Assembly (NCBI GenBank): GCA_001825155.1
Contig: MHVH01000005.1
Coordinates: 3,528 to 67,527, forward strand
DNA from: Candidatus Zambryskibacteria bacterium RIFCSPHIGHO2_01_FULL_46_25
Lineage (GTDB): Bacteria > Patescibacteriota > Minisyncoccia > Phycocordibacterales > Zambryskibacteraceae
DNA: 64,000 nucleotides
Direction of reading: 5' to 3'
Positions 6,217 to 63,483 of the stretch are shown here, one piece after another. The number at the start of each line of letters is the position of its first letter. Within the stretch, counting starts at the first letter, position 1. Under the pieces are notes generated by a model, which was not told the DNA's origin, ran no database searches, and worked only from the letters and a program-made list of their open reading frames with translations. A program made the position numbers and the translations under genes.

Positions 6217-8985
6217 ATGCAGGAATACGACCCGAAAAATATAGAAGCGAAGTGGCAGAAAGAGTGGGAGAAATCCGGTCTTTATCGTGCAGAGGATTCT
6301 TCCGAAAGGCCCAAGTATTACTCTCTCATTGAGTTTCCTTATCCTTCCGGCGATGGCTTGCATGTCGGTCATCCTCGCCCGTATATCGGCATGGATGTCA
6401 TTTCGAGGAAGAAGAGGATGGACGGCTTCAACGTGCTTTATCCCATAGGCTGGGACGCCTTCGGTTTGCCAACGGAGAATTATGCCATCAAGACCGGCCG
6501 TCCTCCGTCCGAAATTACGAAAGAGAATACCGACACATTCCGCAGACAAATCCAGTCTCTCGGAATATCTTTCGACTGGTCGCGGGAGATAAACACGACC
6601 GACCCGAAATATTACAAATGGACACAGTGGCTCTTCTTGAAATTTCTCGAACATGGTCTGGCGTACAAAGCAAAAATTCCGATTAATTGGTGTCCGCAGG
6701 ACAAAATTGGTTTAGCGAACGAAGAAGTCTTGTCCGTTGGCGGACAAGAAGTCTGCGAACGCTGCGGCACGCCGGTCGAACAGAGGGAGAAAGAGCAATG
6801 GATGCTTGCCATTATTAAGTACGCGGAGAAACTTTTGAGTGACCTGGACACTGTTGATTATCCCGAGCGCGTCAAAGTTCAGCAGAAAAATTGGATTGGA
6901 AAATCTGAAGGAGCGGAGATAGAATTTAAAATCAAAAATCAAAAACCAAAAATCAAAGTTTTTACCACTAGGCCGGATACCATTTTTGGCGCGACTTTTT
7001 TGGTAAAAGCGGGAAAAGAAGACAAATTCACGGGAAAGTATGCCATCAATCCGGCTACTAAAGAAGAGATTCCGATTTGGGAAGCAGAATATGTCATGGG
7101 CGACTACGGCACCGGAGCCATTATGGGCGTACCCGCGCATGATGAAAGGGATTATGATTTTGCTATTAAGCATGATTTGCAGATAAAACACGTAATAATG
7201 CCAGTTTTGCCGGATCCGACCAATCCTCATCGAACCGACAAAGAAGTCATTGTTCGCAAAGTTACTTTAAGCATCATCTATGATCCGAAAGCAAAGAAAT
7301 ATCTGTCTCTAAAATGGAAAAAAGTTCCGTGGAGAACTTTTATCACCGGTGGAATCGAAGAGGGGGAAGATCCGATACTGGCCGCAAGAAGGGAAATAGC
7401 GGAAGAAACAGGATACACGGATATTAATCTGGTTAGAGTCCTGGGAGGCAAGACCCAAGCGGAATTCTACGCGGAACACAAGGGCGTTAATCGCATCGCG
7501 TATGACACTTTGATCCTTTTTGAACTTGTAAGCGATGCGCGTCAGACAGTGGCAGCCGAAGAACTCGATAAACACGAGGTCGAATGGATAACCGAAGACG
7601 AATTTAAGAATGCGCGCATAAATCACTCGGAAATAGACATCATCAGGAAACGCATCGAGACCGGCAAGGATTTTTATATCGGAGAAGGCGTTCTCGTAGA
7701 TTCAGAAGGATTTGACGGTTCATCTAGCGAAGAAGCAAGGGGAAAGATTACCGAGAAATTTGGCAAAAAGGTTGTCAAATACAAACTCCGGGACTGGGTT
7801 TTTTCGAGGCAGAGATACTGGGGCGAGCCAATACCGGTTGTGCATTGCGCTAAGTGCGGCATTGTGCCGGTGCCGGAGAAAGATTTGCCGGTGCTGTTGC
7901 CGAAAGTCAAGAATTACGAGCCTACCGATACGGGCGAATCGCCGCTCGCGGCCATAGAAGAATGGGTCAATACATCGTGCCCTAAGTGCGGTGGCGATGC
8001 CAAGAGAGAGACCGACACCATGCCCAACTGGGCCGGTTCTTCGTGGTATTTCCTCGCTTATCTTTTCGACAAAAAGGGATTTGAGAATCCCGCATCCATT
8101 GAAAATTGGAAATTGCAAATTGAAAATTTCCGGCATTTCATGCCGGTTGACTGGTACAACGGTGGTATGGAGCACACGGTACTTCATCTTCTCTATTCGC
8201 GTTTCTGGAACAAATTCCTGTTTGATATTGGTCTTGTGCCGACAAGCGAGCCGTACAAGAAGCGCACTTCCCACGGTCTGATTCTCGCCGAAGGGGGAGA
8301 GAAGATGAGTAAGTCGAAGGGCAATGTCATTAATCCGGACGCAATCGTCGAGCGCTTCGGCGCGGATACCCTGCGGGTCTATGAGATGTTCATGGGCCCC
8401 TTCGAGCAGGCGATAGGGTGGAGTGAGGCATCGCTTGTCGGACCGAGAAAATTTTTAGAGAGGGTTTGGCGGTTGAAAGATAAAATTCACCAAGGCAAGG
8501 CCTTAGATACCAATTCCCAAGGCCTTGCCTTGGTTCATCGAACTATCAAGAAAGTGACTAATGATATCGAAGCGATGGGATTCAACACCGCAGTATCAAC
8601 CCTGATGATTTTTGCGAATGACTTGGAAAAAAGAAAAGGAATCTCTCAAGAAGAATACGAAACATTGCTAAAGTTGTTAGCGCCATTCGCGCCGCACATG
8701 ACAGAAGAATCGTGGCACCAACTTGGACATTCGATGTCCAAATCGATTCACGAAGAGCTCTGGCCCAAGTTCGATGAAACAAAACTTGTATCTGAGACTG
8801 TTACGATTGTGGTTCAGGTCAACGGCAAGGTACGTGCGAAGTTTACGACCCAGTCTATCGTGGAAGAAAAAGAGGCTATCGACTTGGCAATGAACTTACC
8901 CGAAACGCAAAAGTGGGTTGGGGATAAGAAGGTGGAGAAGACCATTTATGTGCCTGGAAAACTGGTAAATATCGTGGCAACTTGA
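6217..8985 (+). CDS. leuS: leucyl-tRNA synthetase with embedded Nudix-like domain
   Basis: HVGH (HIGH) motif, TTRPDT CP1 motif, KMSKS, C-terminal VQVNGKVRAK. About 140-aa insertion at aa 341-470 containing a perfect Nudix box GGIEEGEDPILAARREIAEETGY. Confidence 0.95.
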   Translation: MQEYDPKNIEAKWQKEWEKSGLYRAEDSSERPKYYSLIEFPYPSGDGLHVGHPRPYIGMDVISRKKRMDGFNVLYPIGWDAFGLPTENYAIKTGRPPSEITKENTDTFRRQIQSLGISFDWSREINTTDPKYYKWTQWLFLKFLEHGLAYKAKIPINWCPQDKIGLANEEVLSVGGQEVCERCGTPVEQREKEQWMLAIIKYAEKLLSDLDTVDYPERVKVQQKNWIGKSEGAEIEFKIKNQKPKIKVFTTRPDTIFGATFLVKAGKEDKFTGKYAINPATKEEIPIWEAEYVMGDYGTGAIMGVPAHDERDYDFAIKHDLQIKHVIMPVLPDPTNPHRTDKEVIVRKVTLSIIYDPKAKKYLSLKWKKVPWRTFITGGIEEGEDPILAARREIAEETGYTDINLVRVLGGKTQAEFYAEHKGVNRIAYDTLILFELVSDARQTVAAEELDKHEVEWITEDEFKNARINHSEIDIIRKRIETGKDFYIGEGVLVDSEGFDGSSSEEARGKITEKFGKKVVKYKLRDWVFSRQRYWGEPIPVVHCAKCGIVPVPEKDLPVLLPKVKNYEPTDTGESPLAAIEEWVNTSCPKCGGDAKRETDTMPNWAGSSWYFLAYLFDKKGFENPASIENWKLQIENFRHFMPVDWYNGGMEHTVLHLLYSRFWNKFLFDIGLVPTSEPYKKRTSHGLILAEGGEKMSKSKGNVINPDAIVERFGADTLRVYEMFMGPFEQAIGWSEASLVGPRKFLERVWRLKDKIHQGKALDTNSQGLALVHRTIKKVTNDIEAMGFNTAVSTLMIFANDLEKRKGISQEEYETLLKLLAPFAPHMTEESWHQLGHSMSKSIHEELWPKFDETKLVSETVTIVVQVNGKVRAKFTTQSIVEEKEAIDLAMNLPETQKWVGDKKVEKTIYVPGKLVNIVAT
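8098..8131. repeat. ATTGAAAATT-type 12-nt tandem repeat cluster, in-frame inside leuS (encodes IENWKLQIENF)
   Basis: attgaaaattggaaattgcaaattgaaaatttcc. Same repeat family as 32437..32470 and 34287..34319. Confidence 0.6.
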
Positions 8986-12219: not shown

Positions 12220-13327
12220 AAAGGTTTACGTCGGACTCTCCGGCGGGGTTGACTCTGCTGTCTCAGCAGCTTTGCTTAAGGAGCAAGGTTTCGATGTGAC
12301 CGGCGTTTTTATTAAGGCGTGGCAGCCAGAATGGATGGCTTGCATTTGGCGTGAGGAGCGCCGGGACGCCATGAGAGTTGCTCTCGCGCTTGATATTCCA
12401 TTTCTTTTTTTAGATTGCGAGCGTGAGTACAAGCAGGCGGTAGTGGATAAGATGATTGCCGAGTACAAAGCGGGCCGCACACCGAATCCGGACGTGCTCT
12501 GCAATCGGGAAATCAAGTTCAGCGTCTTTTGGGAAAAAGCTCGCGAACTCGGCGCGGACTATATTGCAACCGGGCATTATGCGAGAAATCCCTCCCTGCC
12601 CCTCCCTTTGTCAAGGGAGGGGAATAAAACTGATACCCCCTTGATAAAGAGGGCTGGGGGATTGTGTGAAGGAGTCGACAAAGAAAAAGATCAAAGTTAT
12701 TTTCTCTGGATTCTGACCGAAAAGGACTTGTCCCACGTCATTTTTCCGGTGGGAGATTTGGAGAAGAGGGAAGTGCGAGAACTCGCGCAGAAATTCAAAT
12801 TACCCGTGGCGGAGAAGAAGGATAGCCAGGGTATATGCTTCATGGGTGATGTTTCCATGGAGGAATTTCTCTCCCACTATGTTTCCGCGAAGCCCGGCAA
12901 AGTTATGAACGCCGATGGAGAAGTGATAGGCAGGCACGAAGGTCTTGTCTACTACACTATCGGCGAACGGCGCGGCTTCGAAGTGACAAAAAAGAGCGCC
13001 GCGAGCGGGCCGTTCTATATTGTGGCGAAGGACCCGGACACGAATACTCTTGTCGTATCTGACAAAGAAGAAGAGATTCTGGAATTTTCTCCGACCAAAA
13101 TACTTTTGAAAAATGTTAATTGGATTAATGAGCCAGAGAATTCGGAAATTTCCGGCAGAGTCCGCTATAGGGGAGAGAAATTGCCTCTAAGGCTGTCGGT
13201 TGTGGGTCGTCGGTTGTCTGTTGAATTCAAGAATCCCGTTCCCGGCCTCTCTCTCGGTCAGTCGCTGGTCTTCTACGACGGCGAGAATTGCCTCGGCGGC
13301 GGCATCATGGACAAAGTTTTGGAATAA
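12188..13327 (+). CDS. mnmA: tRNA-specific 2-thiouridylase MnmA
   Basis: PP-loop VGLSGGVDSAV, AEYKAGRTPNPDVLCN, C-terminal GQSLVFYDGENCLGGG. Start codon uncertain; ATG 12188 overlaps the mltG end. Carries an 81-bp in-frame repeat insertion. Confidence 0.85.
   Translation: MLPRSKNISSKKVYVGLSGGVDSAVSAALLKEQGFDVTGVFIKAWQPEWMACIWREERRDAMRVALALDIPFLFLDCEREYKQAVVDKMIAEYKAGRTPNPDVLCNREIKFSVFWEKARELGADYIATGHYARNPSLPLPLSREGNKTDTPLIKRAGGLCEGVDKEKDQSYFLWILTEKDLSHVIFPVGDLEKREVRELAQKFKLPVAEKKDSQGICFMGDVSMEEFLSHYVSAKPGKVMNADGEVIGRHEGLVYYTIGERRGFEVTKKSAASGPFYIVAKDPDTNTLVVSDKEEEILEFSPTKILLKNVNWINEPENSEISGRVRYRGEKLPLRLSVVGRRLSVEFKNPVPGLSLGQSLVFYDGENCLGGGIMDKVLE
12587..12667. mobile_element. 81-bp MITE-like miniature of the DUF559 TIR element, inserted in-frame in mnmA
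   Basis: Left part (aatccctccctgcccctccctttgtcaagggagggg) and right part (cccccttgataaagagggctgggggattgtgt) match the two termini of the element at 42228..42677. Length 81 is divisible by 3. Adds about 16 aa (…NPSLPLPLSREGNKTDTPLIKRAGGLCEG…) relative to canonical MnmA between GHYAR and DQSYFL. Confidence 0.6.
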
Positions 13328-13374
13328 TAATTATAGACAGCCCAAAATACATACTGAAGTGCACAAAATCCCAT

Positions 13375-13412
13375 ATACGTTATAATTATGCGGTCGCACA
13401 ATAGTAGCGTAT
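13375..13412. promoter_or_regulatory. 38-bp palindromic element (ATACGTTA-N22-TAgCGTAT), copy 1, overlapping the start codon of the PaaX-like gene
   Basis: atacgttataattatgcggtcgcacaatagtagcgtat. Near-identical copy at 14001..14038. Confidence 0.5.
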
Positions 13413-13977
13413 GGGTAAATTAGAAGAAAAAAGCGGAAAAAGATCCAAAAGAAAGCATTTGCAATACGCCATATTTCAAACTGTTGCCGCTGTCGGGGTT
13501 TTAAGCGCGGCTGTCATGGCCCCGAACGTACTAATTGCCATGGATAAGCTCGGCTCGATTCCAAACAGAAGACAGAAAGAATATATTAGTTCATCTGCCA
13601 GTAAATTAGTCAAGCGAGGACTGCTTCACTTCGATGGCAAAAGATATCAAATGACCTCAATAGGGGAGAGTCTATTCCGGCGTTGGCAATTTGCAGATTT
13701 CCAGATCCAAAAACCTAAGAGATGGGATAAAAAGTGGCGGGTTATGATTTTTGATATCCCGGAGAAGAAAAGAAAGATCAGAAATGATCTAACCACGTTA
13801 TTTCGCGCGGCCGGCATATACCGTCTCCAAAACAGCGTTTGGGTATATCCGTATGAATGCGAGGATATCATTACTTTGCTCAAAACCGATTTCGGCATCG
13901 GCAAGTATCTTCTATATATGATTGTCGATGAGCTTGAAAATGATAAATATTTGCGTCAGCACTTCGGTCTTATCTAG
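13411..13977 (+). CDS. PaaX-family transcriptional regulator (wHTH N-terminus, Cas2-like C-terminal region)
   Basis: WDKKWRVMIFDIPE…LQNSVWVYP resembles the PaaX WDGKW hinge and the Cas2/VapD core (catalytic-Asp region, QNSVF). 188 aa. Confidence 0.55.
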   Translation: MGKLEEKSGKRSKRKHLQYAIFQTVAAVGVLSAAVMAPNVLIAMDKLGSIPNRRQKEYISSSASKLVKRGLLHFDGKRYQMTSIGESLFRRWQFADFQIQKPKRWDKKWRVMIFDIPEKKRKIRNDLTTLFRAAGIYRLQNSVWVYPYECEDIITLLKTDFGIGKYLLYMIVDELENDKYLRQHFGLI

Positions 13978-14000
13978 CTCAATTTAATTAAAAAATCCCT

Positions 14001-14038
14001 ATACGTTAAAGTCATGCGGTCGCACAAAAGTAACGTAT
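14001..14038. promoter_or_regulatory. 38-bp palindromic element copy 2 (ATACGTTA-N22-TAACGTAT), about 58 nt upstream of the ATP-cone nuclease gene
   Basis: atacgttaaagtcatgcggtcgcacaaaagtaacgtat. TATAAT at 14083 follows. Confidence 0.5.
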
Positions 14039-14095
14039 CTACACAATTGGTGATGATTTAAAAACGATATCTTTTCTATCTGCTATAATATTTCC

Positions 14096-14938
14096 ATGCC
14101 GGAAACAGCGGACACGATAACTATAATCAAGGCTTCGGGGCAAAGAGAGGCTTTCGACCCGGAGAAACTGCGCTTCTCGCTTTTAAACTCCGGCGCGTCG
14201 CAGGAGGAGGCAGAAGAAGTGTTGAAGCATCTAGAGCCGGAGCTCAAGAACGGTATGTCTACGCATGATATTTACCATCATGCGTTCTCCATTCTCACCA
14301 AGATGAGCCGCCCGGTCGCCCGAAGTTATTCGTTGCGCCGCGCCGTCATGGATCTTGGCCCGTCTGGCTTTCCTTTCGAGGATTTCGTTGCCGAGATTTT
14401 GCGGGCTCAAGGTTTCCAGTGCATTACCCGCCAGACAGTTATAGGTGGCTGTGTGCCTCATGAGGTGGATGTCGTGGCTTACAACAACAAGAAACTTATT
14501 ATGGTTGAGGCCAAGTTCCACAACGAACTCGGCACGAAGTCCGATCTCAAGGTGGTGCTCTACGTCAAGGCGCGCTTCGATGACATCAAAGACAATGTAT
14601 ATGACTACGGCGGCAATGATAGAAAAGTTACAGACAGCTGGCTTGTGACCAATACCAAATTTTCCTCGACGGCGATCCACTATGCCGAGTGCAAGAATAT
14701 GACGCTTATCGGCTGGAATTATCCGGAGAAGAATAATCTCCAAGATATGATTGAGAACGAAGGTCTGCATCCCGTCACTTGTCTTACCACGCTTTCGAAC
14801 GATGAGAAAAAACAGCTTCTAGCTGGAGGCGTCGTGCTTTGCTCGAGTATCAAGGAGAGGCCACAGGTGCTTAAGGATCTTCTTGGCTCCGCCTTCGATG
14901 CTGATTCAGTACTTAATGAAATTAACGAACTAAAATAA
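14096..14938 (+). CDS. ATP-cone domain protein fused to PD-(D/E)xK (restriction-endonuclease-like) domain
   Basis: N-terminus ITIIKASGQREAFDPEKLRFSL is ATP-cone-like. Central HEVDVVAY…LIMVEAKF fits D-x(n)-E-x-K nuclease motifs. Confidence 0.6.
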   Translation: MPETADTITIIKASGQREAFDPEKLRFSLLNSGASQEEAEEVLKHLEPELKNGMSTHDIYHHAFSILTKMSRPVARSYSLRRAVMDLGPSGFPFEDFVAEILRAQGFQCITRQTVIGGCVPHEVDVVAYNNKKLIMVEAKFHNELGTKSDLKVVLYVKARFDDIKDNVYDYGGNDRKVTDSWLVTNTKFSSTAIHYAECKNMTLIGWNYPEKNNLQDMIENEGLHPVTCLTTLSNDEKKQLLAGGVVLCSSIKERPQVLKDLLGSAFDADSVLNEINELK

Positions 14939-14957
14939 TTCGACTAACTCACTATAA

Positions 14958-15407
14958 ATGATAAATCTTTTAAATATTTCCCCCGCTTACGAACCATTGG
15001 CCTACCTTGTGCTCGCGCTTGTGCTAGGTTCGCTTCTGGGCATGGAACGCACACTTGCTCACAAGACCGCCGGCGTTCGCACTTATGGGCTGGTTTCCAT
15101 GGGTTCGGCGCTCTTCATCCTAATTGCCAAGTACGTCATACCGACAGTAGAGGCTTATAACTACGACCCTATGCGCATAGCGGCCGGAGTTGTCATGGGC
15201 ATCGGTTTTCTCTGCGGCGGGGTAATCATCTTTAAGGACTCCCAGCTCTCCGGACTTACCACGGCGGCTGGACTCTGGGTGGCCGCGGGTATTGGCATGG
15301 CAGTCGGATATGGGCTAGTCATGCTCGCTGTCTTCGCTACCGCGGCAACGCTTGTCGTCTTTACGTTGTTCTGGTTTATCGAGCATAAAATAATCTCGAG
15401 AACTTAA
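14958..15407 (+). CDS. MgtC/SapB family membrane protein
   Basis: MgtC-type N-terminus (…LGSLLGMERTLAHKTAGVRTYGLVSMGSALF…) with 4-5 TM helices. Confidence 0.8.
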   Translation: MINLLNISPAYEPLAYLVLALVLGSLLGMERTLAHKTAGVRTYGLVSMGSALFILIAKYVIPTVEAYNYDPMRIAAGVVMGIGFLCGGVIIFKDSQLSGLTTAAGLWVAAGIGMAVGYGLVMLAVFATAATLVVFTLFWFIEHKIISRT

Positions 15408-23212: not shown

Positions 23213-23214
23213 TC

Positions 23215-23237
23215 ACTTAGCTGTCCGACAGCTAAGT
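23215..23237. repeat. perfect palindrome ACTTAGCTGTC-CG-GACAGCTAAGT (copy 1). Probable bidirectional terminator
   Basis: Copies at 23581..23603 and 63372..63394. Located after the rpsI stop and downstream of the minus-strand small gene. Confidence 0.6.
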
Positions 23238-23318: not shown

Positions 23319-23501
23319 TCAGTCGGGGATGACACAGGCGGAAAACGAAACGATGTTCTTGCTACGTGCCAGTGCCATTTCTTCCGCGGCCTGCCGAATC
23401 TCCAGAGAGATGTTATCTCCCTCCTTGATTTCGATTTCCGTCGAATCGAGTTTGTTGTCGTGTATCTCGTCTTCTAAAACAACCATTACTAGCAACTTCA
23501 T
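23319..23501 (-). CDS. small acidic hypothetical protein (60 aa)
   Basis: ATG preceded by AAGGAGG at 7-nt spacing on the minus strand. AT-rich islet. Confidence 0.4.
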   Translation of the reverse strand: MKLLVMVVLEDEIHDNKLDSTEIEIKEGDNISLEIRQAAEEMALARSKNIVSFSACVIPD

Positions 23502-23580
23502 AGACAGCCTCCTTTTACTACCATACGCCAAATAAGTATTTTGTCAAATCTAAACTTGATTTATGCGGTTTTTATAATGC

Positions 23581-23603
23581 ACTTAGCTGTCGGACAGCTA
23601 AGT
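23581..23603. repeat. palindromic repeat copy 2 (ACTTAGCTGTC-GG-ACAGCTAAGT)
   Basis: Brackets the AT-rich small-gene insert together with copy 1. Confidence 0.6.
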
Positions 23604-23667
23604 GCTGAAGTGGAGGAATTCCAGTGGTTGAAGTTGCATATTATTTTGCCTAGAGCATACTAACATT

Positions 23668-32474: not shown

Positions 32475-34319
32475 ATGTGCGGAATAACAGGGATCACAGA
32501 CAAAAACCTAGCGAAGAAAGAGTTCATCGAGAAGATGACCACTGTTATCGCCCACAGAGGCCCTGATGACGACGGTTTTCTCGTCGACGAACATGTCGCG
32601 CTTGGCATGAGGCGACTTTCAATTATTGATTTAGTCCACGGGGAACAGCCTATTGCGACGCCTGACGGTCGATATAAAATTTTCTTCAACGGTGAGATTT
32701 ACAACTATAAAGAATTAAAGAAAGAGTTGAATAATTATCAATATAAAACCGAGAGTGACACGGAAGTAATACTGGCAGGATTTGTGAAGTGGGGTCCGGA
32801 AGTTCTGAAAAAGCTCCGCGGAATGTTTGCCTTTTGTATTTATGATACGCAGGAGAAGAAAATTTTCTTGGCTCGGGATTTCTTCGGCATAAAACCCTTA
32901 TATTACTGGACACAGGCAAGGCCTATGGGTCCCATAGGCCTTGCCTGTGTAGCGTTTTCTTCCGAGATAAAAAGTTTCTTTGAGTTACCCGGATTCAAGC
33001 CGGAGGTGAATGATGCCGCCGTCTACAACTATCTTTCATACCAATACAATCCGCTGGAAGAAACTTTTTTCAAAAATGTTTTCAAGCTTCCTCCCGCGCA
33101 CTATCTGACGATCGATCTCAAGACTGGCAAGTGGGAGAAGAAGCGCTATTGGCAGTTCAAGTTCTCTCCAGAAGAAGCTCTGGACGAGGAGAATACGCGC
33201 AAAGAGATTCTAAATACGATGGAGGATTCGGTGGCGCATCATATGATTGCCGATGTGCCGGTGGGTTCCTTCTTGTCGGGTGGTATAGATTCCTCTATCA
33301 TCGCAACCTTGATGCAGAAAGTTCGTGGCGAGAAAAAAATAAAAACCTTTACCGTCGGTTTCAACTCTGTAAGCGAAGGTAGGGAAGCGAAAGAGACTTC
33401 AGAGCCGCTTGGTACAGACCATACGGAAATCAGTGTCGGGGCCGAAGAATACTTTGCCACCTTACCCAAGGCGGTGTGGCACTTCGACGAGCCGGTGGCG
33501 GACCCGTCGGCCATCGGGCTTTATTTCCTGGCTCGCGAGGCGAGAAAACACGTCAAGGTGGTGCTCTCGGGAGAAGGCGCCGACGAGCTCTTCGGTGGAT
33601 ACAACATTTATCTCGCGCCCATTGCCGCCGAGAGATTGCGCAAGTTTCCGAAATTCATTTTGAAATTAATCAGTGTACTGCCATTCCGCGGTAGAAACTA
33701 TGCTCAAAGAGCTCTCTTGAAGCTCGAAGACTGGTACATAGGCAATGCCTTAGTATTTAAGCCAGAAGAGATTAGGTCTCTCTGGCGAGACAACCCTATG
33801 TCAAGGGGCATCCTTGACACTCTATATCGAGAAGCGGCTGGGCTCAGCGATTCGACCAAGATGCAATACATAGACATAAACACTTGGCTAGTGGGTGACA
33901 TCCTCGCCAAGGCGGACAAGATGACTATGGCACATTCGCTCGAGCTCCGAGTGCCGTTTTTGGACAGCTCCGTAGCGACACTTGCTTCAAAGCTTCCGAA
34001 TAAATTTAAGTGGCATAATGGTGTAACGAAGTATCTCTTGCGGGAAGCTTTCAAAAATGTTTTGCCGGAATCCACGCGTAAGCGCAAGAAGCTCGGTTTC
34101 CCGACGCCGGTGCGTGAATGGATTACGAAAGAGAGAACGAATGTCATTCTCGAAAATCCATATATCAAATCGCATTTCGATGTTGCAAAAATCGAAGAAT
34201 TGATTAGCGACCATATCTCAAAAAGAACCGACAACTCGCGCAAAATCTACCTCCTCCTCATGCTCGCCCTCTGGTACAATGTATTTATTGAAAATTCTAA
34301 ATTGAAAATTGAAAATTAA
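32475..34319 (+). CDS. asnB: asparagine synthase (glutamine-hydrolysing), AsnB family, copy 2
   Basis: MCGITG N-terminus. SGGIDSS PP-loop. 614 aa. C-terminus (…IENSKLKIEN*) is encoded by the tandem repeat. Confidence 0.85.
   Translation: MCGITGITDKNLAKKEFIEKMTTVIAHRGPDDDGFLVDEHVALGMRRLSIIDLVHGEQPIATPDGRYKIFFNGEIYNYKELKKELNNYQYKTESDTEVILAGFVKWGPEVLKKLRGMFAFCIYDTQEKKIFLARDFFGIKPLYYWTQARPMGPIGLACVAFSSEIKSFFELPGFKPEVNDAAVYNYLSYQYNPLEETFFKNVFKLPPAHYLTIDLKTGKWEKKRYWQFKFSPEEALDEENTRKEILNTMEDSVAHHMIADVPVGSFLSGGIDSSIIATLMQKVRGEKKIKTFTVGFNSVSEGREAKETSEPLGTDHTEISVGAEEYFATLPKAVWHFDEPVADPSAIGLYFLAREARKHVKVVLSGEGADELFGGYNIYLAPIAAERLRKFPKFILKLISVLPFRGRNYAQRALLKLEDWYIGNALVFKPEEIRSLWRDNPMSRGILDTLYREAAGLSDSTKMQYIDINTWLVGDILAKADKMTMAHSLELRVPFLDSSVATLASKLPNKFKWHNGVTKYLLREAFKNVLPESTRKRKKLGFPTPVREWITKERTNVILENPYIKSHFDVAKIEELISDHISKRTDNSRKIYLLLMLALWYNVFIENSKLKIEN
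34287..34319. repeat. ATTGAAAATT-type tandem repeat cluster forming the 3-prime end of asnB copy 2
   Basis: attgaaaattctaaattgaaaattgaaaattaa. Confidence 0.6.
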
Positions 34320-42227: not shown

Positions 42228-42677
42228 AATCCTCCCCCATAAATCCCTCCAACCCCCCTTTATCAAGGGAGGTGAATCATGAAATACAATTTTATTCCAT
42301 ATGATAAAAATCTGGTACTCCGGGCCAGAGAATTAAGAAATAATCAAACGGAAGCAGAGAAATACTTTTGGACCAATGTTCTTAAAAGTAAAAAATTCAA
42401 GACTTTCATATTTTTGAGACAAAAACCGGTTGGAAATTTCATTGTCGATTTCTACTGCTCGCGTTTGTTACTCGGCATAGAAATTGACGGCCATATCCAT
42501 GACAAGAATAGGGATAAAGAAAGAGATAATATATTAAAAGAGAAATTCGGGATTACGGTCCTTAGGTATAGAAACGAAGATGTTATGGATAATCCTGAAA
42601 AAATTGTGAAAGACCTATTGCGACAAATGAAAGGTTGATCCCTCCCTTGATAAAGGGAGGGCAGGGAGGGATTGTGT
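42228..42677. mobile_element. about 450-bp element with imperfect terminal inverted repeats (AATCC(C)TCCC… / …GGGAGGGATTGTGT) carrying a DUF559/Vsr-like nuclease gene
   Basis: Left end cctcccccataaatccctccaacccccctttatcaagggagg. Right end ccctcccttgataaagggagggcagggagggattgtgt, the reverse complement of the left end. A miniature derivative lies at 12587..12667. Confidence 0.6.
42279..42638 (+). CDS. DUF559-type endonuclease-domain protein (Vsr/PD-(D/E)xK-like)
   Basis: …RQKPVGNFIVDFYCSRLLLGIEIDGHIHD… signature of the DUF559/very-short-patch-repair-like fold. 119 aa. AT-rich. Confidence 0.7.
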   Translation: MKYNFIPYDKNLVLRARELRNNQTEAEKYFWTNVLKSKKFKTFIFLRQKPVGNFIVDFYCSRLLLGIEIDGHIHDKNRDKERDNILKEKFGITVLRYRNEDVMDNPEKIVKDLLRQMKG

Positions 42678-54300: not shown

Positions 54301-54558
54301 TTACTTGGTCGGGATAGGACAGGAGCAGTACTTCACTTTTTTGCTTGGCGCTCCCATCTTGATGCCGTGGCAGTGCGGACAGAATATCCGCTTGCACCTG
54401 TTGCACTCATGATCTTCAACTTCCCCGAGAATGCATGATGGACATGATCCCTCGCAGCCACAGCGATTGTTGGGATTTACCCCGTCCCACTCTCCGACGA
54501 CGACAGGGAATCTGTCTGTAGGATACTCGTATGTCAGCTCATCAATCTTAGGATTCAT
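54301..54558 (-). CDS. small Cys-rich protein (85 aa, 12 Cys), probable metal-binding
   Basis: CGCEGSCPSC…CNRCKRIFCPHCH…CSCP. AAGGAG SD. Preceded by the shared 65-bp upstream repeat. Confidence 0.45.
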   Translation of the reverse strand: MNPKIDELTYEYPTDRFPVVVGEWDGVNPNNRCGCEGSCPSCILGEVEDHECNRCKRIFCPHCHGIKMGAPSKKVKYCSCPIPTK

Positions 54559-54580
54559 TAGGAACTCCTTCCGCGGAATA

Positions 54581-54645
54581 CTCTACAATAATATTTAAAC
54601 TTCCGCAACTACATAATAACAATACGACCGTCGGCTTATTATGTA
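54581..54645. promoter_or_regulatory. 65-bp upstream repeat copy 1 (contains inverted repeat TACATAATAA-N…-TTATTATGTA)
   Basis: ctctacaataatatttaaacttccgcaactacataataacaatacgaccgtcggcttattatgta. Copy 2 at 55307..55375. Confidence 0.55.
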
Positions 54646-54692
54646 TACGATTTAAAAACGCTATAGCGTAGTTATTTCGTAATAAAACGAAT

Positions 54693-54721
54693 CGCCGGAC
54701 GTCCCATCGGGACGTCCGGCG
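54693..54721 (-). terminator. palindromic terminator after the 166-aa gene
   Basis: CGCCGGACGTCCCATCGGGACGTCCGGCG followed by a T-rich tract on the minus strand. Confidence 0.6.
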
Positions 54722-54734
54722 TGAAAAGAACAGA

Positions 54735-55235
54735 CTAGAGAAGTTGCTCCAGGCGGCTTGTCAATTCTCTCTCGACCTCGCAGAGCCCCCCGACTTCTTC
54801 ACGAATTTTCCTGGCGGCCATGTCGTCCATGACGTGAAAGTCGACGATTGTCCCAATCATCGTCGCCACGTTATGGACCTTCATCAACAAGTCCTCGACG
54901 TCTTCTGGTAGTTCGCCCGAAATCGGGAAGACCCCGAGGAAATCGAAGAGCTTGTTGACCATGCTGCGGTTGATCTTCGACACGATGCCGGTCATCGCCC
55001 GGTCAATATCCGTGTCCTGGTACGTTTCCAGGAGCTCGAGGGAAATCTCGATGTTTTCCCCGTCGAACTTGCGCTCGCCGGGCAGAACTCTCACGAAGTT
55101 CCTTCGTACTCCTGGACCGTTCGGGTCTGTTTCCTCCGGCCATTCCGTAATCTGGAGCTGATTCGGTATCTTCCCCAGTTCTTCCAACAGCCGGGCCAGC
55201 GCCTGAATCGGAACCCTTGTCTTGAAAAGAGCCAT
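54735..55235 (-). CDS. hypothetical protein (166 aa)
   Basis: AGGAGG SD. Monocistronic unit with its own repeat-containing upstream region and terminator. Confidence 0.45.
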   Translation of the reverse strand: MALFKTRVPIQALARLLEELGKIPNQLQITEWPEETDPNGPGVRRNFVRVLPGERKFDGENIEISLELLETYQDTDIDRAMTGIVSKINRSMVNKLFDFLGVFPISGELPEDVEDLLMKVHNVATMIGTIVDFHVMDDMAARKIREEVGGLCEVERELTSRLEQLL

Positions 55236-55306
55236 GCTGTCCTCCTGTAGGCAAAGCCTACCTGGAAACTTCGAGTGCGGAATTGCTCTCGAATGGACAA
55301 CCTAAA

Positions 55307-55375
55307 CTCTACAATAATATTTAAATATACGCAACTACATAATAAGCCGACGACCGTTTGCTTATTATGTAGTTG
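55307..55375. promoter_or_regulatory. 65-bp upstream repeat copy 2 (CAACTACATAATAA-N16-TTATTATGTAGTTG)
   Basis: ctctacaataatatttaaatatacgcaactacataataagccgacgaccgtttgcttattatgtagttg. Confidence 0.55.
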
Positions 55376-63371: not shown

Positions 63372-63394
63372 ACTTAGCTGTCCAACAGCTAAGT
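63372..63394. repeat. palindromic repeat copy 3 (ACTTAGCTGTC-CA-ACAGCTAAGT)
   Basis: Third member of the 23215 and 23581 family. Followed by a perfect 22-bp palindrome ACACTATGATA/TATCATAGTGT at 63401..63422. Confidence 0.6.
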
Positions 63395-63483
63395 TGTGAC
63401 ACACTATGATATATCATAGTGTCCTACGTTATCTTTTAGCTATAGCAGAATTGTAACGTATGTGAATTTTTGCAAACGCGAAG

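Follow-up and report, generated by a model that had tools for sequence, protein, structure and literature searches.

The 64-kb stretch of a Candidatus Zambryskibacteria (Patescibacteria) genome considered here (the window) contains a gene for a 188-aa PaaX-like protein at 13411-13977, followed by a nuclease gene at 14096-14938. A 38-bp palindrome lies on each side of the first gene. This locus raises the question of what the two palindromes serve: the protein whose gene they bracket, both genes together, or something other than regulation. A preliminary description of the stretch treated the two genes as one ligand-controlled nuclease module with a shared operator. The comparisons below favour a different answer, in which a truncated PaaX-type protein (mini-PaaX) probably represses its own gene through paired operators and the nuclease gene is probably a bystander.

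The 188-aa protein is 100% identical to a protein from a RIFCSPHIGHO2_12 metagenome-assembled genome. A scan of species-representative genomes gave 69 loci with homologues (27-78% identity), often several per genome. Close homologues are those with at least 51% identity (n = 29, metagenome loci included). Loci and contigs of relatives used for comparison carry L-numbers (L001, L132 etc.). Sites away from the gene come from one scan of metagenome contigs with a class-specific pattern (62 loci), and palindromes of strict geometry were counted in 65 loci totalling 478 kb. The geometry of a unit is 8-N6-4-N2-4-N6-8, comprising outer arms, spacers, inner arms and a 2-nt centre (38 bp). The analysis used Pfam, NCBIfam, PADLOC, Rfam, Foldseek, AlphaFold2 (AF2), ARAGORN and a sigma-70 scan.

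Palindromes and protein at the mini-PaaX locus

The two 38-mers are identical at 33 of 38 positions and belong to a direct repeat that grows to 48 nt with one indel (83%; 13365-13412 versus 13991-14038). The 14-mer core common to both occurs only twice in the 64 kb, and 100 shuffles gave no 38-mer match with three or fewer mismatches. The 8-bp outer arms (ATACGTTA / TAACGTAT) are complementary at 7/8 and 8/8 positions in the two copies. The inner arms form the palindrome TGCG-GT-CGCA around a central GT, and the 6-nt spacers between the outer arms and this inner palindrome are not complementary. The preliminary description had placed a 38-bp element with inverted termini at 13375..13412 and 14001..14038, and its coordinates and palindromicity are borne out. 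The reported overlap with the regulator start codon is also correct, as the first copy reaches the AT of the start codon at 13411. The second copy ends 57 nt before the nuclease ATG (14096), which agrees with the earlier figure of about 58 nt. The TATAAT box that was said to follow directly lies 45 nt past the element, at 14084-14089.

This layout is conserved. Both cognate sites are present in all 29 close homologues (29/29), with one palindrome ending in the AT of the ATG and a second one 8-49 nt past the stop codon. A perfect TATAAT occupies site positions 7-12 in 21/27 of the 5' sites versus 4/28 of the 3' sites. Distant homologues (Moranbacteria, Paceibacteria and others) have palindromes of the same geometry and wholly different sequence, in most cases on both sides of the gene. 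Of the 72 palindromes of strict geometry, 59 are no more than 260 nt away from an end of the gene, and this zone accounts for 7% of the sequence. Shuffled sequence yields 0-2 palindromes.

A 3' site is present in 39/66 loci of the wider family. Its distance from the stop codon has a median of 27 nt (interquartile range 15-41), and its distance to the next gene start has a median of 97 nt and ranges from -83 to 361. The gene that follows is on the plus strand in 17 loci and on the minus strand in 21 (n = 38). Judging from these distances, the position of the 3' site is tied to the regulator stop codon rather than to whatever gene follows.

The two sites of one locus are alike (37-38 of 38 positions in the best cases), and paralogues from the same genome differ in arms and core. 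Tyrosine 58 (Y58), in the putative recognition helix, is kept in 23 of the 24 proteins with ACGTTA arms (it is F in L016) and is replaced by S, S, V or I in 4/4 proteins with ACAT arms. In L010, where the arms are ACGATA, the protein differs at positions 59, 60 and 64 of the helix. Distant subfamilies with other recognition helices have other arms. The architecture of the locus, its conservation and the covariation of protein and site are thus visible directly in the sequences compared. On this comparison, the sites are cognate to their own protein and the outer arms covary with the putative recognition helix. For the residues that might read the core, mutual information pointed to positions 126-133 (a helix of the Cas2-like domain); no conclusion was drawn, as the classes coincide with clades.

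The protein itself matches PaaX_M (PF20803) at residues 103-174 with an E-value of 1.5e-18 (67 bits versus a cutoff of 24). Pfam describes this family as the 'PaaX protein central Cas2-like domain', and it is present in 120/120 listed homologues. Pfam gives no match to the PaaX_C effector domain (PF08223) or to the PaaX N-terminal model, and the protein stops at residue 188, right behind the Cas2-like domain. The phenylacetate operon repressor model TIGR02277 aligns with residues 58-159 and scores 25.2 bits versus a cutoff of 264.55, which is below equivalog level; the regulator neighbourhood contains no paa genes. Among Cas2 models, NCBIfam TIGR01573 scores 25.0 versus a cutoff of 24.5 with only model positions 3-41 of 96 aligned, and Pfam PF09827 scores 15.3 bits, below its cutoff of 23.8. 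The AF2 model is confident for residues 103-188, with a predicted local distance difference test (pLDDT) value above 80 for the C-terminal domain. Foldseek ranks E. coli W PaaX (8a39) and Rv0674 (3kfw) highest for this model, and many Cas2 structures come next (probability ~0.9); the alignment with 8a39 has 176 columns. At 50% identity the family comprises 2880 representatives, of which nearly all are 180-200 aa long.

These matches indicate that the product of 13411-13977 is a truncated PaaX-type DNA-binding protein with a predicted winged helix-turn-helix (wHTH) and a Cas2-like dimerisation domain and without the effector domain. The profile searches that bear on the earlier domain reading gave PaaX_M, ATP-cone and Mrr_cat matches, with PF09827 below its cutoff and PF08223 without a match. 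The proposed PaaX-like protein with a Cas2-like block therefore holds as a domain call, and the combination, which had been presented as a feature of this protein, is standard PaaX architecture in Pfam (PF20803). The pairing of PaaX and Cas2 is already known; by its domain content, the peculiarity of this protein is that it ends after the Cas2-like domain. No link of PaaX to Cas2 or to Patescibacteria was found in the literature searched.

A membrane anchor at the hydrophobic stretch 17-45 was considered and dropped; by eye, the stretch corresponds to helices 1-2 in the wHTH of E. coli PaaX. Three homologues (P0080, P0095 and P0110) carry the public name 'CRISPR-associated endonuclease Cas2', because the partial TIGR01573 match clears its cutoff by 0.5 bit. 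Such names on family members are probably misannotations of mini-PaaX proteins. A CRISPR link was rejected for the locus: the 64 kb contain no repeat-spacer array and no cas1, and the neighbours are mnmA and the nuclease gene.

Table 1. Positions of the features discussed, in window coordinates.
Feature	Position	Strand	Details
5' repeat copy	13365..13412		38-bp palindrome 13375-13412 = ATACGTTATAATTATGCGGTCGCACAATAGTAGCGTAT; TATAAT at 13381-13386; final 2 bases are the AT of the start codon
mini-PaaX gene, 188 aa	13411..13977	+	Basic N-terminal tail; predicted wHTH at about residues 38-82; WDKKW hinge 105-109; Cas2-like domain 103-174
3' repeat copy	13991..14038		38-bp palindrome 14001-14038 = ATACGTTAAAGTCATGCGGTCGCACAAAAGTAACGTAT; begins 23 nt past the regulator stop codon
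Nuclease extended -10	14081..14089	+	TGCTATAAT (TGcTATAAT); read from the sequence, putative function
ATP-cone + Mrr_cat (PD-(D/E)xK) protein, 280 aa	14096..14938	+	Domains from Pfam; neighbour, probably outside the regulator unit
Two abutting units, 36-nt phase	54609..54682		First unit 54609-54646, arms CTACATAATAA, core ACGACCGT; second, weaker unit 54645-54682, core CGCTATAGCG (family D1)
Cognate copy of the 54609 unit	55335..55372		On the minus strand, then TTGCGT-17 nt-TAGAGT and the Shine-Dalgarno sequence of a 166-aa open reading frame (54735-55235)
Orphan unit	63424..63461		Arms CTACGTTA/TAACGTAT, core GCTATAGC (core type of paralogue L003)

The nuclease gene and sites elsewhere

Both domains assigned earlier to the downstream protein, an ATP-cone and a PD-(D/E)xK nuclease, are confirmed. 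ATP-cone (PF03477) scores 26.6 bits versus a Pfam cutoff of 25.8 and Mrr_cat (PF04471) scores 33 bits versus 21, and the PD-(D/E)xK residues D125 and E138-A-K140 are present. The C-terminal part matches AF1548 (PDB 1y88) with an E-value of 3.6e-27, a homologue of solved structure that is otherwise uncharacterised. The putative extended -10 of the gene stands 6 nt before the ATG, which is the geometry of a leaderless mRNA, and the centre of the 3' palindrome lies at about -76 relative to the start from this extended -10. The genes at 54.3-55.2 kb have clear Shine-Dalgarno sequences, unlike the regulator gene.

The nuclease gene is part of a conserved block, DUF8128-YceG-MnmA-nuclease-MgtC-UDG-AlaS. 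It stands beside the regulator gene in 4/69 genome loci and several metagenome contigs, all of them nearest orthologues. L132 and L133 have no regulator gene, and the nuclease gene follows mnmA after 12 and 27 nt, which leaves no room for a palindrome. The same gap contains 253 nt of unrelated DNA in L134, a methyltransferase gene in another relative, and a solo site in L101. The left half of the L101 site is like the 5' copy and its right half is like the 3' copy, a hybrid that recombination between two flanking repeats would leave. The gap of L134 (2748-3000) includes a tRNA-like stretch, GCTCATTGGTAGAGCGCCAGC, in which ARAGORN finds no tRNA. The conservation of the neighbourhood thus does not extend to the regulator/nuclease pair, and the nuclease is probably a member of a housekeeping block beside which the regulator unit happens to lie, a bystander rather than a partner. 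The 3' site might have some influence on transcripts that run on into the nuclease gene. A defence role, which had been offered as speculation, finds no convincing PADLOC match: no defence model matches the pair, the regulator has partial Cas2 matches and the nuclease a weak PDC-S02 match (E = 1e-4). Ligand control is also without basis, as the regulator has no PaaX effector domain.

About 40 sites of the metagenome-contig scan have no PaaX-like gene nearby. These orphan sites are intergenic and adjoin unrelated housekeeping genes, including the 3' end of rpoD (four loci), gyrA, smc/rnr, trmD/rpoB, aspS, glyS and ribosomal protein genes. The orientation of their TATAAT-like half agrees with that of the neighbouring genes and opposes it in roughly equal measure, and for this reason the proposal that they act as the promoter of the next gene was rejected. 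Many orphans are in arrays of 2-3 abutting units in which neighbours have the terminal AT in common. Adjacent units are spaced by exactly 36 nt in 19 of 22 pairs; several of these loci are one region from different samples. Each unit of an array has a different core, for example GCGACCGC beside CACTATAGTG.

The window contains about six units in its 64 kb. Read on the minus strand, the abutting units at 54609..54682 lie upstream of a promoter-like sequence and the Shine-Dalgarno sequence of an 85-aa Cys-rich open reading frame (ORF). No PaaX-like gene with the specificity of the 54609 and 55335 units is present in the window. Two small minus-strand genes occupy this region (54301-55372), one for the 85-aa Cys-rich protein and one for a 166-aa protein of no Pfam family. 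Each has a 66-nt repeat upstream that consists of a 38-bp palindrome of the same geometry and a promoter-like sequence. The orphan unit at 63424-63461 adjoins other palindromes downstream of a tRNA.

Other repeated elements are present in the window and in relatives. A second palindrome family, CACTTAGCTGTC(C/G)GACAGCTAAGTG, occurs at 23213-23237, 23581-23605 and 63372-63398. Between the first two copies, immediately behind rpsI, lies a 70-aa ORF of the minus strand (23319-23531), and the third copy adjoins the orphan 38-bp unit; this palindrome is also found beside 38-bp units in L073 and L108. L090 has near-identical doublets at 174-247 and 2300-2373, each made up of a class-A unit and a TCAC-N4-GTGA unit. 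These doublets are 2.1 kb apart and bracket two small ORFs (129 and 184 aa) of no assigned function, on a contig with no PaaX-like gene. A hairpin-forming element of about 36 nt, ATCCCTCCCTGCCC(C)TCCCTTT(G/A)TCAAGGGAGGG, lies in frame inside mnmA at 12586-12621, and the residues that it encodes are absent from relatives such as L074. A second copy is reverse-complemented in an intergenic gap at 42638-42672. The mnmA copy resembles the in-frame insertions of Rickettsia-type palindromic elements. Long GC-rich hairpins at 8489-8534 and 32910-32950 have AGGCAAGGCCT...AGGCCTTGCCT in common and are probably related intrinsic terminators or another repeated palindrome.

Proposed autorepression and its alternatives

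The arrangement suggests the following scheme, in which binding, repression and the role of the 3' site are what we infer. A mini-PaaX dimer is predicted to bind the 38-bp palindrome ATACGTTA-N6-TGCG-RY-CGCA-N6-TAACGTAT. The outer 8-bp arms, 30 bp apart, would each be contacted by one of its two wHTH domains, and the core would be covered by either the Cas2-like dimer or the basic N-terminal tails. The 5' site holds the -10 box; transcription is predicted to start in the middle of the palindrome, and the start codon lies at its edge, so an occupied site would block both the -10 and the start and shut the gene off. The 3' site would most likely be an auxiliary operator, which might form a loop to the 5' site or act as a roadblock to transcription that runs through from either side. 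Patescibacteria would have many such protein/site pairs, paralogous and insulated from one another, of which this unit would be one. The comparison gives good support to autoregulation, with a 5' site that carries TATAAT and adjoins the ATG. The whole scheme, an autorepressor with paired operators, is considered reasonably probable from the sequence evidence; confidence is higher for binding and lower for the role of the 3' site.

Several results weigh against this scheme. A simple sigma-70 scan of 13000-15200 finds no two-hexamer promoter and no -35 box, and the 18-nt leader of the regulator has no Shine-Dalgarno sequence. The AF2 model shows a helix-helix-wing arrangement at the N-terminus with pLDDT below 50 for residues 1-62. 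The cases behind the correlation of Y58 with the arms may belong to a single clade and may not be phylogenetically independent. The orientation of orphan sites is inconsistent with the flanking genes, and these sites tend to lie nearer to the upstream stop than to the next start, which a plain promoter-operator model does not predict. The exact 36-bp phasing of the arrays is not accounted for by simple repression. The 3' sites and phased arrays go beyond simple repression, and the system is wider than one gene pair.

If regulator and nuclease formed a dedicated module, one repressor would control both genes through a shared operator, possibly with nucleotide sensing. The nearest orthologues (L002, L004, L015, L093, L097 and L124) have the two genes side by side and a conserved site in the gap, with extra DNA in between in L001, L076 and L113, and the lack of an intrinsic terminator between the genes would allow read-through from the autoregulated promoter. 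However, the pairing is rare among the genome loci, and the nuclease block exists without the regulator in L132, L133, L134 and the relative with the methyltransferase gene. The 3' site follows family members whatever gene comes next, and its centre is remote (about -76) from the start that the nuclease gene's own extended -10 would set. A dedicated module is therefore unlikely. A reading of the palindromes as RNA hairpins is less probable still and was rejected. The 5' hairpin would hide the start codon, with translational autoregulation through the Cas2 domain, which is like an RNA recognition motif, and the 3' hairpin would serve mRNA stability or termination. Both copies do fold as this reading expects (-11.9 and -9.0 kcal/mol, z-scores -2.9 and -2.5), with the AT of the ATG inside the stem, the arms change in a compensatory manner (ACGTTA/TAACGT to ACATTA/TAATGT and to ACGATA/TATCGT), and distant members are perfect 18-bp palindromes. 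The folds are modest, however, and there is no Rfam match. In the sense orientation, G.T (G.U-compatible) mismatches in the arms are not in excess over A.C and there is no strand bias (19 versus 23 in 5' sites, 25 versus 16 in 3' sites), which points to a site in double-stranded DNA. With a conserved TATAAT inside it, the left arm would lie outside the transcript, the N6 spacers do not pair, and orphans occur in both orientations.

Mobility is the other alternative. The palindrome-gene-palindrome unit might be, or have been, a mobile or recombinogenic cassette similar to repetitive extragenic palindromes (REPs) and REP-associated tyrosine transposases (RAYTs), in which the Cas2-like protein spreads or maintains palindromes, with orphans and arrays as products. 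Cognate palindromes bracket the gene as REPs bracket RAYT genes, and genomes have multiple paralogues, each with its own palindrome type. The orphans beside housekeeping genes are often mosaics like bacterial interspersed mosaic elements (BIMEs). Relatives have or lack the unit as a whole at the mnmA-nuclease junction, where the solo site of L101 looks like a recombinant of the two flanks, and the protein keeps the Cas2 signature, including D115. In contrast, class-A orthologues are always beside mnmA, which fits vertical descent and loss. The copy number in the window is low, and there is no transposase fold and no target-site duplication. A phage or mobile origin was rejected, as viral contigs yielded no relative. 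The Cas2-like domain is the one through which PaaX proteins ordinarily dimerise, and regulation, not mobility, explains the placement of TATAAT and ATG. A selfish cassette is accordingly judged improbable. A broader version, in which mini-PaaX proteins, as paralogous Cas2-like DNA binders, and their palindromes form a genome-wide REP/RAYT-like or insulator/roadblock system specific to Patescibacteria that brackets its own genes and forms 36-bp-phased mosaics at gene ends, and which might be an evolutionary link between Cas2 and PaaX-type regulators, is slightly less improbable and still doubtful. Autorepression through paired operators remains the favoured reading.

Hardly any transcription factors have been characterised in Patescibacteria, whose genomes are tiny. 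If mini-PaaX proteins are regulators, this PaaX-derived family of ~190-aa proteins (2880 clusters at 50% identity) would be a testable regulator family in which each gene is flanked by readable cognate sites, and its natural protein/site pairs could serve to decode helix-DNA recognition. Two annotations would change: the Cas2 label is probably wrong, and the downstream nuclease is unsupported as a target. The conserved 3' site and the exactly phased, mixed arrays are outside textbook repression and may point to looping, roadblocking or a REP-like element.

Comparison with known systems

The E. coli PaaX operator is TGATTC-N27-GAATCA with a 39 bp footprint, and PaaX represses its own promoter Px by steric hindrance (PMC9493321). 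The 8-N22-8 element of 38 bp at 13375-13412, which lies over TATAAT and ATG, is a putative operator of this type, and the likeness in geometry noted in the preliminary description stands, with footprints of 38 and 39 bp. PaaX of E. coli and Pseudomonas (operators Px, Pa, Pz and pac) and mini-PaaX also have in common the WDxxW hinge and the central Cas2-like domain (PF20803), and the N-terminal wHTH of PaaX has a predicted counterpart in mini-PaaX. The best structural match is 8a39, both systems have inverted short arms with a long spacer, and promoter occlusion is predicted for mini-PaaX. The two differ in length (188 aa versus ~305-316 aa) and in PaaX_C, which mini-PaaX lacks, and with no paa genes nearby a response to phenylacetyl-CoA is not expected. 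Mini-PaaX also has a stronger Cas2 signature (FDIPExKRxxR...LQxSVW), an extra inner palindrome in its site and a second cognate site past the stop codon; its genomes contain many paralogues each, and its sites occur in phased arrays.

Cas2 and mini-PaaX both contain a ferredoxin-like beta-alpha-beta-beta-alpha-beta domain with the aspartate motif of Cas2 beta1. Unlike Cas2, mini-PaaX has this domain fused to a predicted wHTH, matches the Cas2 model in part, and has neither cas1 nor a CRISPR array in the window. The likeness to RAYT/REP and BIME systems is one of layout: a single gene between cognate extragenic palindromes, several paralogue/palindrome pairs per genome, and further palindromes that are intergenic, near gene 3' ends and in mosaics of types. 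Mini-PaaX is, however, not an HUH/Y1 (IS200-like) transposase, as its matches are to PaaX_M and Cas2-like models and its fold is that of PaaX. Its palindromes have a far lower copy number and no conserved GTAG-type cleavage motif, and the 5' palindrome forms part of the promoter and the start codon.

In lac O1/O2, gal OE/OI and protein roadblocks, as at this locus, two cognate sites lie a few hundred bp apart, one at the promoter and one downstream, an arrangement that would suit looping or roadblocking. Unlike in lac and gal, the second mini-PaaX site is past the stop codon of the repressor's own gene and is conserved across the family. This self-bracketing layout and the site arrays are the unusual features of what otherwise appears to be a PaaX-type repressor/operator system.

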